DNA of 979 nt, from the NCBI RefSeq assembly GCF_003334315.1, contig NZ_QOWR01000126.1. The stretch is one strand, 5' to 3'. This document shows positions 557 through 940 of this stretch, piece after piece. The stretch is from Escherichia coli (GTDB taxonomy: Bacteria; Pseudomonadota; Gammaproteobacteria; Enterobacterales; Enterobacteriaceae). The first letter of the stretch is position 1. Each line of letters opens with the position of its first letter. A model generated the notes under the pieces. That model was not told the DNA's origin, ran no database searches, and worked only from the letters and a program-made list of their open reading frames with translations. A program made the position numbers and the translations under genes.

Positions 557-802
557 ATGTCAAATACATACCAGAAAAGAAAGGCAAGTAAAGAGTATGG
601 TTTATATAATAAATGTAAGAAACTAAATGATGATGAATTATTTCGCTTACTTGATGATCGCAATTCCTTGAAAAGGATTTCATCTGCCAGAGTATTACAG
701 TTAAGAGGGGGGCAAGACGCTGTTAGATTGGCAATTGAATTCTGCACTGACAAAAATTATATCCGTAGAGATATCGGAGCATTTATACTCGGGCAAATAT
801 AA
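557..802 (+). CDS. yibA: YibA-like HEAT-repeat protein, N-terminal 81 codons terminated by a premature in-frame TAA (truncated product if expressed)
   Basis: Translation MSNTYQKRKASKEYGLYNKCKKLNDDELFRLLDDRNSLKRISSARVLQLRGGQDAVRLAIEFCTDKNYIRRDIGAFILGQI matches my recollection of the E. coli K-12 YibA N-terminus with a few substitutions. The ORF track starts at ATG 542 (MEVPAM...), but that ATG overlaps the Shine-Dalgarno, so 557 is the better start. Stop TAA at 800-802. Confidence 0.65.
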   Translation: MSNTYQKRKASKEYGLYNKCKKLNDDELFRLLDDRNSLKRISSARVLQLRGGQDAVRLAIEFCTDKNYIRRDIGAFILGQI

Positions 803-940
803 ATTTGCAAAAAATGCGAAGATAATGTTTTTAATATTTTGAACAATATGGCATTGAATGATAAGAGTGCTTGCGTTCGAGCTACGGCAATCGAGTCAAC
901 GGCCAGGGAAAGATCATCAAAAGTTCACTTTTTGCACTAA
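557..940 (+). pseudogene. yibA: yibA-like gene disrupted by a nonsense codon (800-802), with a second stop at 938-940 after similarity is lost; likely a pseudogene
   Basis: Same frame downstream of the TAA reads ICKKCEDNVFNILNNMALNDKSACVRATAIESTA (803-904), still YibA-like as I recall it. It then reads RERSSKVHFLH and stops at 938-940, far short of the roughly 280-aa length I remember for intact YibA. Confidence 0.5.

Follow-up and report, generated by a model that had tools for sequence, protein, structure and literature searches.

A widely distributed in-frame TAA codon in a truncated, RhsB-linked copy of yibA in Escherichia coli

The in-frame TAA codon considered here is very probably a widely inherited nonsense mutation, lying in what sequence comparison marks as a pseudogene: a 116-codon, RhsB-linked second copy of yibA that appears to be redundant and in neutral decay. 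It occupies positions 800–802 of a 979-nucleotide stretch of E. coli DNA, which as a whole we call the window. The feature is already known, and is an ordinary annotated pseudogene of the RhsB element. The window is made up as follows.

1–453, + strand: 3' portion of an IS1 element, matching annotated IS1A/IS1B copies with 100% identity
61–438, + strand: C-terminal open reading frame of IS1 InsB, matching NCBIfam NF033558
431–453, + strand: right terminal inverted repeat of IS1, ATCAATAAGTTGGAGTCATTACC
454–504, + strand: DNA 3' of the yhhH stop codon in the RhsB element, identical to K-12
505–536, + strand: last 32 nt of an rhsA-type C-terminal toxin reading frame (a relic); homology to the 3' end of K-12 rhsA starts at 505
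534–536, + strand: TAG, the stop of the rhsA-type relic, after 10 codons
557–799, + strand: yibA-like codons 1–81 (MSNTYQ...AFILGQI), with the ATG at 557
800–802, + strand: nonsense codon TAA, in place of AAA (Lys82) of YibA
803–903, + strand: yibA-like codons 83–116, past the stop; the third base of codon 116 is 904
904–979, + strand: left end of ISEc1 (H-repeat, ISAs1 family), beginning CAGGGAAAGATC; the K-12 transposase gene is yhhI

Around the stop the window reads ...GGG CAA ATA TAA ATT TGC AAA..., with the TAA at 800–802 in the frame of the ATG at 557. Upstream, this frame translates as MSNTYQ...DIGAFILGQI, which makes the TAA codon 82; downstream of the stop it translates as ICKKCEDNVFNILNNMALNDKSACVRATAIESTA. 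The intact YibA of K-12 MG1655 (280 aa, encoded at the RhsA locus) reads ...AFILGQIKICKKCEDNV..., with AAA (Lys82) as its codon 82, and AAA is also found in the aligned intact yibA genes of RM7190, FDAARGOS_772, 19AR0646, STEC276, and J2. A base-by-base comparison of 505–903 with the K-12 rhsA-3'/yibA region gave 97.2% identity (11 differences in 399 nt), and the A to T change at 800, which turns AAA into TAA (K82*), is one of the 11. Codons 1–116 of the remnant are collinear with YibA and depart from the K-12 protein by three replacements (Q19K, H35R, and S64T) and the one nonsense change, in addition to four silent changes. The stop is found at a sense codon of the intact homologues, with approximately 97% identity in the flanks on both sides; a lone in-frame stop inside such clear homology is real, and no chance effect. 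A genuine gene end was considered and rejected, given the sense codon AAA in intact yibA and the homology to either side.

The original prediction, made from the letters of the window, had read this much correctly: it had a TAA interrupting a yibA-like frame at the right coordinates, placed a lysine here in the intact protein and proposed a single AAA to TAA substitution, and took the stop to be something other than a true gene end. It had also stated that homology continues downstream of the stop. The residues there are indeed homologous to YibA, but the homology extends for 34 codons only, ending at 903 after codon 116 of 280, with ISEc1 next. The ISEc1 truncation at 904 had been overlooked.

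The remnant carries an ATG at 542–544 where the leader of K-12 yibA has GTG. This creates an in-frame upstream start; as a result, the fragment appears in gene predictions as an open reading frame of either 86 aa or 81 aa.

Positions 454–979 match the RhsB locus of K-12 MG1655 with 100% identity, and many other complete genomes contain the identical stretch. This identity to annotated genomes settles the identity of the locus: the fragment is a paralogous remnant linked to RhsB, and not yibA itself, as had been assumed. The K-12 gene order is rhsB, yhhH, a flagged CDS, yhhI (ISEc1 family transposase), and yhhJ. The RefSeq flag on the CDS between yhhH and yhhI reads “internal stop; incomplete; missing C-terminus,” and its product is named “lyase” or “HEAT repeat domain-containing protein.” In K-12 this remnant is yrhC, which we take to be formally classed as a pseudogene. 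The K-12 locus and the window are alike throughout 454–979, the TAA and the ISEc1 junction included; they differ to the left of 454, where K-12 has yhhH and the window has the end of IS1. The rhsB–yhhH–remnant order is present in K-12 and ten other assemblies, and a K-12 gene list across a deletion runs rhsB, yhhH, yrhC, yhhI (PMC10652928). Positions 454–504, matched by positions 4000–4050 of the K-12 locus piece, are also identical to the yhhH–yibA spacer of RM7190 and FDAARGOS_772. It is worthwhile checking paralogous Rhs loci before a gene is named; here, doing so prevents a pseudogene already annotated in K-12 from being mistaken for a new nonsense mutation, a fault of assembly, or a sign of Shigella-type genome decay.

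The rhsA CDS of K-12 ends 20 nt before yibA; in the window, 505–536 matches the last 32 nt of K-12 rhsA, and the yibA start follows after an identical 20-nt spacer. The 3' relic of another rhs tip is thus followed by its partner gene. Expression of yibA neutralised growth inhibition by the RhsA C-terminus (a finding cited in PMC3150448). Displaced C-terminal tips accumulate 3' of rhs genes (Jackson et al. 2009, PMC2935791), and orphan tip/immunity modules have been described (Poole et al. 2011, PMC3150448). The remnant resembles these displaced or orphan rhs and cdi modules (PMC2935791, PMC3150448) in its place 3' of a complete rhs gene and the small open reading frame cognate to it, in keeping the last 32 nt of a former toxin tip followed by the partner gene, and in its insertion sequences, which often disrupt such arrays (PMC2935791, PMC3150448). 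It differs in that hardly anything of the toxin tip survives and in that the orphan immunity gene has itself been truncated and has acquired a stop; such a fragment is too short to be expected to protect against the cognate toxin, or to work as a spare immunity gene. Set against yibA at RhsA, the remnant shares the 97.2% nucleotide identity over 505–903, with three amino-acid replacements in codons 1–116, but is interrupted by a stop at codon 82 and is missing codons 117–280. Furthermore, yibA sits behind an rhsA-type tip, whereas the remnant sits behind yhhH.

ISEc1 cuts the yibA-like frame after codon 116. Copies of ISEc1 (H-rpt) in other contexts, such as those adjoining ybfD- and ydcC-type transposase genes in K71-77 and O157:H7 FRIK2069, start to match the window at 904/905 and have unrelated DNA before that point; one terminal sequence thus bounds independent copies in differing flanks. 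In K-12, yhhI (annotated as an ISEc1 family transposase) lies approximately 140 nt downstream. Past 903 the yibA frame runs into 11 unrelated, IS-derived codons and reaches a second stop, TAA, at 938–940. The remaining 164 codons of yibA (117–280) were searched for in the K-12 RhsB locus and were not found there, so either the ISEc1 event was no simple insertion or a deletion came afterwards.

What is left is homologous to the YibA family, but it is a fragment. With Lys82 restored, the 116-aa product scores 160 bits against NF007244 (PRK09687, “putative lyase”), below the curated cut-off of 275 bits; the match covers positions 1–117 only of a profile of approximately 285 positions, and intact K-12 YibA scores 466.5 bits. 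There is no uninterrupted HEAT-repeat frame, given the stop at codon 82 and ISEc1 after codon 116. In YibA, all Pfam HEAT_2 matches with E≤0.001 fall at residues 138–275, outside the remnant. Since these matches lie entirely beyond codon 116, the fragment would be non-functional, and the remnant dead as a gene, even without the TAA.

The frequency of the TAA allele was assessed with a 91-mer centred on 800, which differs from yibA at that base only. It had an exact match in 1771 of 5426 complete E. coli genomes (about a third), and a further 1323 of the 5426 gave a best match of 95–99%. Carriers include K-12 lines, BL21, ATCC 8739, and O111:H8, and these have no IS1 at the site. Public assemblies contain the 81-aa product in 9961 indexed blocks, and it is found on at least 1000 contigs, under such names as “Protein yibA,” “lyase,” and “hypothetical protein.” All 34 TAA carriers that were sampled have two matches to the 91-mer, and where this was checked (K-12 and the carriers listed) the second is annotated yibA; in K-12 it is the intact yibA (WP_000072850.1) at the RhsA locus. 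Among sampled full-length non-carriers there is a single match in 25 of 25, nearly always to annotated yibA. Where checked, the same genomes have an intact copy, so that loss of the RhsB-linked one would be tolerated. The TAA itself would then have no function, being one product of neutral decay in a copy that the intact RhsA-linked gene renders redundant.

How might this arrangement have arisen? Approximately 1100 complete genomes have an rhs gene with an rhsB-type tip, then yhhH, and then a full-length, intact yibA (WP_000072850.1), with the same 454–504 spacer and the same breakpoint at 505 as the window. Judging by analogy with displaced-tip modules, yhhH followed by intact yibA is the arrangement expected when a new tip and its partner replace an older tip. 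The K-12-type RhsB element would then represent the same arrangement with the distal part of yibA taken out by ISEc1. The intact orphan behind yhhH in these genomes, the stepwise remnant haplotypes described below, and one possible pseudogene-to-gene conversion are of modest interest for the study of Rhs toxin/immunity arrays. Two of these genomes show the arrangement at 3115–4445 of their locus pieces, with the orphan yibA intact behind yhhH, in what looks like this locus before its decay.

The proposed series of events would have four steps. An rhsB-type tip with yhhH would first have replaced nearly all of an rhsA-type tip, leaving 32 nt of the old tip and yibA as an orphan. ISEc1 (H-repeat) would then have removed yibA codons 117–280, and the dead fragment would have drifted, acquiring Q19K, S64T, K82*, and silent changes. 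Last, in the source of the window, IS1 would have landed, or ended a deletion, one base past the yhhH stop.

The order of the middle steps can be addressed with remnants that are truncated and yet lack the stop. A query joining AAA at codon 82 to the ISEc1 junction found such a remnant in six complete genomes, at locus positions of approximately 1303–1653. In OSUCMP42NDM, MFDS1016424, and S6aCHROMc, the truncated remnant equals the window except at base 800. In TW10573 and LR882052.1, it has the canonical yibA bases at 611, 660, 709, 739, 746, 751, and 800, and AS19 is canonical at the same positions other than 709. AS19 is a mosaic, yet its relative BL21 has the TAA.

OSUCMP42NDM, MFDS1016424, and S6aCHROMc, which were isolated in three countries, have in common a private SNP in ISEc1, at window-equivalent position 1176; none of the sampled TAA carriers with flanks aligned in register has this SNP. 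For this reason the three look like a sister lineage that lacks the stop. They suggest, with moderate confidence and from only three related genomes, that truncation came first, then drift, and the stop last. Gene conversion from intact yibA, or back mutation, would give the same AAA pattern; the conversion patch would have to be shorter than 117 nt and lie between 751 and 868. In addition, the differences at 660, 739, 751, and 868 are common to the remnant and the divergent yibA allele of 19AR0646, so not all of the remnant's differences are post-truncation drift. Because conversion from the resident intact yibA could produce the same mosaics, and because of the sharing with 19AR0646, our confidence in the order of events is only moderate.

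This bears on the strongest competing account, in which the nonsense mutation first arose in a full-length orphan yibA and the ISEc1 truncation came later. We consider it unlikely. A query joining the TAA to intact downstream yibA had a perfect match in one genome, Z1323CEC0013 (NZ_CP148427.1), where a full-length yibA carries the entire remnant haplotype (526–868), stop included; this could be the pre-truncation state, and the AAA in truncated remnants could be put down to conversions from the intact paralogue. However, this yibA sits behind an rhsA-type tip and not behind yhhH, a second place in the same genome (presumably the RhsB remnant) also matches the query, and conversion or a polishing artefact fits better than ancestry. 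The three truncated remnants that differ at 800 only and share the private ISEc1 SNP fit a sister lineage, and among the yhhH-linked full-length copies examined none had the TAA. Truncation before the stop therefore stays our preferred order, at the confidence given above.

The Z1323CEC0013 gene (2303–3145 of the locus piece) is RhsA-linked and carries the RefSeq flag “internal stop.” It is either a case of pseudogene-to-gene conversion or a polishing artefact in a repeat. The rhsA upstream of it also appears split. A broader reading, which we regard as doubtful, is that the remnant acts as a recombination partner of the RhsA-linked yibA, with alleles passing both ways by ectopic gene conversion. 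The reverse direction would be represented by the truncated remnants of TW10573, LR882052.1, and AS19, which have the canonical yibA haplotype (AS19 except at 709). If this is true, then in Z1323CEC0013 a pseudogene copied its nonsense mutation into a functional immunity-type gene and disabled yibA. A use of its own for the 81-aa N-terminal peptide is much less likely.

It is very improbable that the stop is functional, whether as the genuine end of a selected 81- or 86-aa protein or as a site of read-through or recoding to a longer product. The 81- and 86-aa frames are routinely called by gene finders and the sequence is very well conserved among carriers, but such conservation is expected from recent common descent, and the count of three replacements, one nonsense, and four silent changes gives no sign of purifying selection. 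The fragment is below the NF007244 cut-off and has no HEAT_2 match at E≤0.001. Reading through the stop would extend the product by no more than 34 YibA codons and 11 IS-derived ones before the TAA at 938–940, which is no conserved functional extension. TAA is not known to act as a recoding codon in E. coli. Scans of the window for Rfam families and for promoters and terminators turned up nothing of relevance, and in particular no RNA family, structured signal, or terminator that would bear on the stop. Recoding was rejected on these grounds: an extension of 34 codons plus IS sequence, and no RNA or terminator signal.

The original prediction had favoured either a recent nonsense mutation, linked to the nearby IS1 and to the IS expansion and gene decay of Shigella-like genomes, or a sequencing error. 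The IS1 copy is certainly there. It has InsB coding sequence that matches the IS1 family transposase profile NF033558 with 127.9 bits (cut-off 100) over profile positions 100–199 of 199, and a terminal inverted repeat at its boundary. It ends ...GTCATTACC at 453, 103 nt before the ATG, much as the predicted distance of about 100 bp had it. Identity to the RhsB locus starts at 454. K-12 reads ...GAAAATAAG|TATGTAAGG at the junction site, also given as ...AAATAAG|TATGTAAGG, and IS1 thus adjoins the RhsB element exactly one base past the yhhH stop codon. IS1 may simply have inserted here, or the junction may be one end of a deletion of yhhH/rhsB that IS1 mediated.

A 600-nt query spanning the join of IS1 with 454 had no full-length match in a single piece among the matches listed from 5426 complete E. 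coli genomes; among these there were nearby IS1 copies at other positions. An exact 36-mer across the junction was found neither in GTDB species representatives nor in JGI metagenomes. The IS1 event itself is thus probably lineage-specific, and this, together with its closeness to the ATG, is what speaks for a recent, lineage-specific nonsense mutation that arose in IS-driven, Shigella-like decay. We nevertheless regard such an origin as scarcely credible. The haplotype at 454–979 is unchanged in K-12, BL21, ATCC 8739, O111:H8, and many others, and those carriers have an intact yhhH at the site and no IS1. Because the TAA is carried where IS1 is absent, the stop would predate the IS1, and from this distribution the two appear to be unrelated events of very different age. 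Neither the recency of the mutation nor its link to IS expansion was borne out, the allele being shared by strains with no IS1 at the site.

A sequencing or assembly error at 800 in the source record has nothing but general possibility in its favour and can be dismissed as next to impossible, given that the base lies in a stretch of approximately 525 nt that is 100% identical to K-12 MG1655 and to many independent complete genomes, that the TAA 91-mer recurs in 1771 of the 5426 genomes, and that the 81-aa product is spread over 9961 assembly blocks and at least 1000 contigs.

Outside Escherichia, a degenerate 32-mer covering both alleles, searched in GTDB representatives, gave no matches beyond four short stray contigs of E. 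coli-like sequence, in assemblies assigned to other organisms. These are filed under Pantoea conspicua, a Flavobacterium psychrophilum MAG, and a Lachnospiraceae MAG, and hold RhsA/RhsB-locus sequence with TAA or AAA. They are most likely E. coli contamination or the result of mis-binning. In one of them, 12 nt are deleted in frame between two ACGGC repeats, and this deletion ends where ISEc1 lies in the window.
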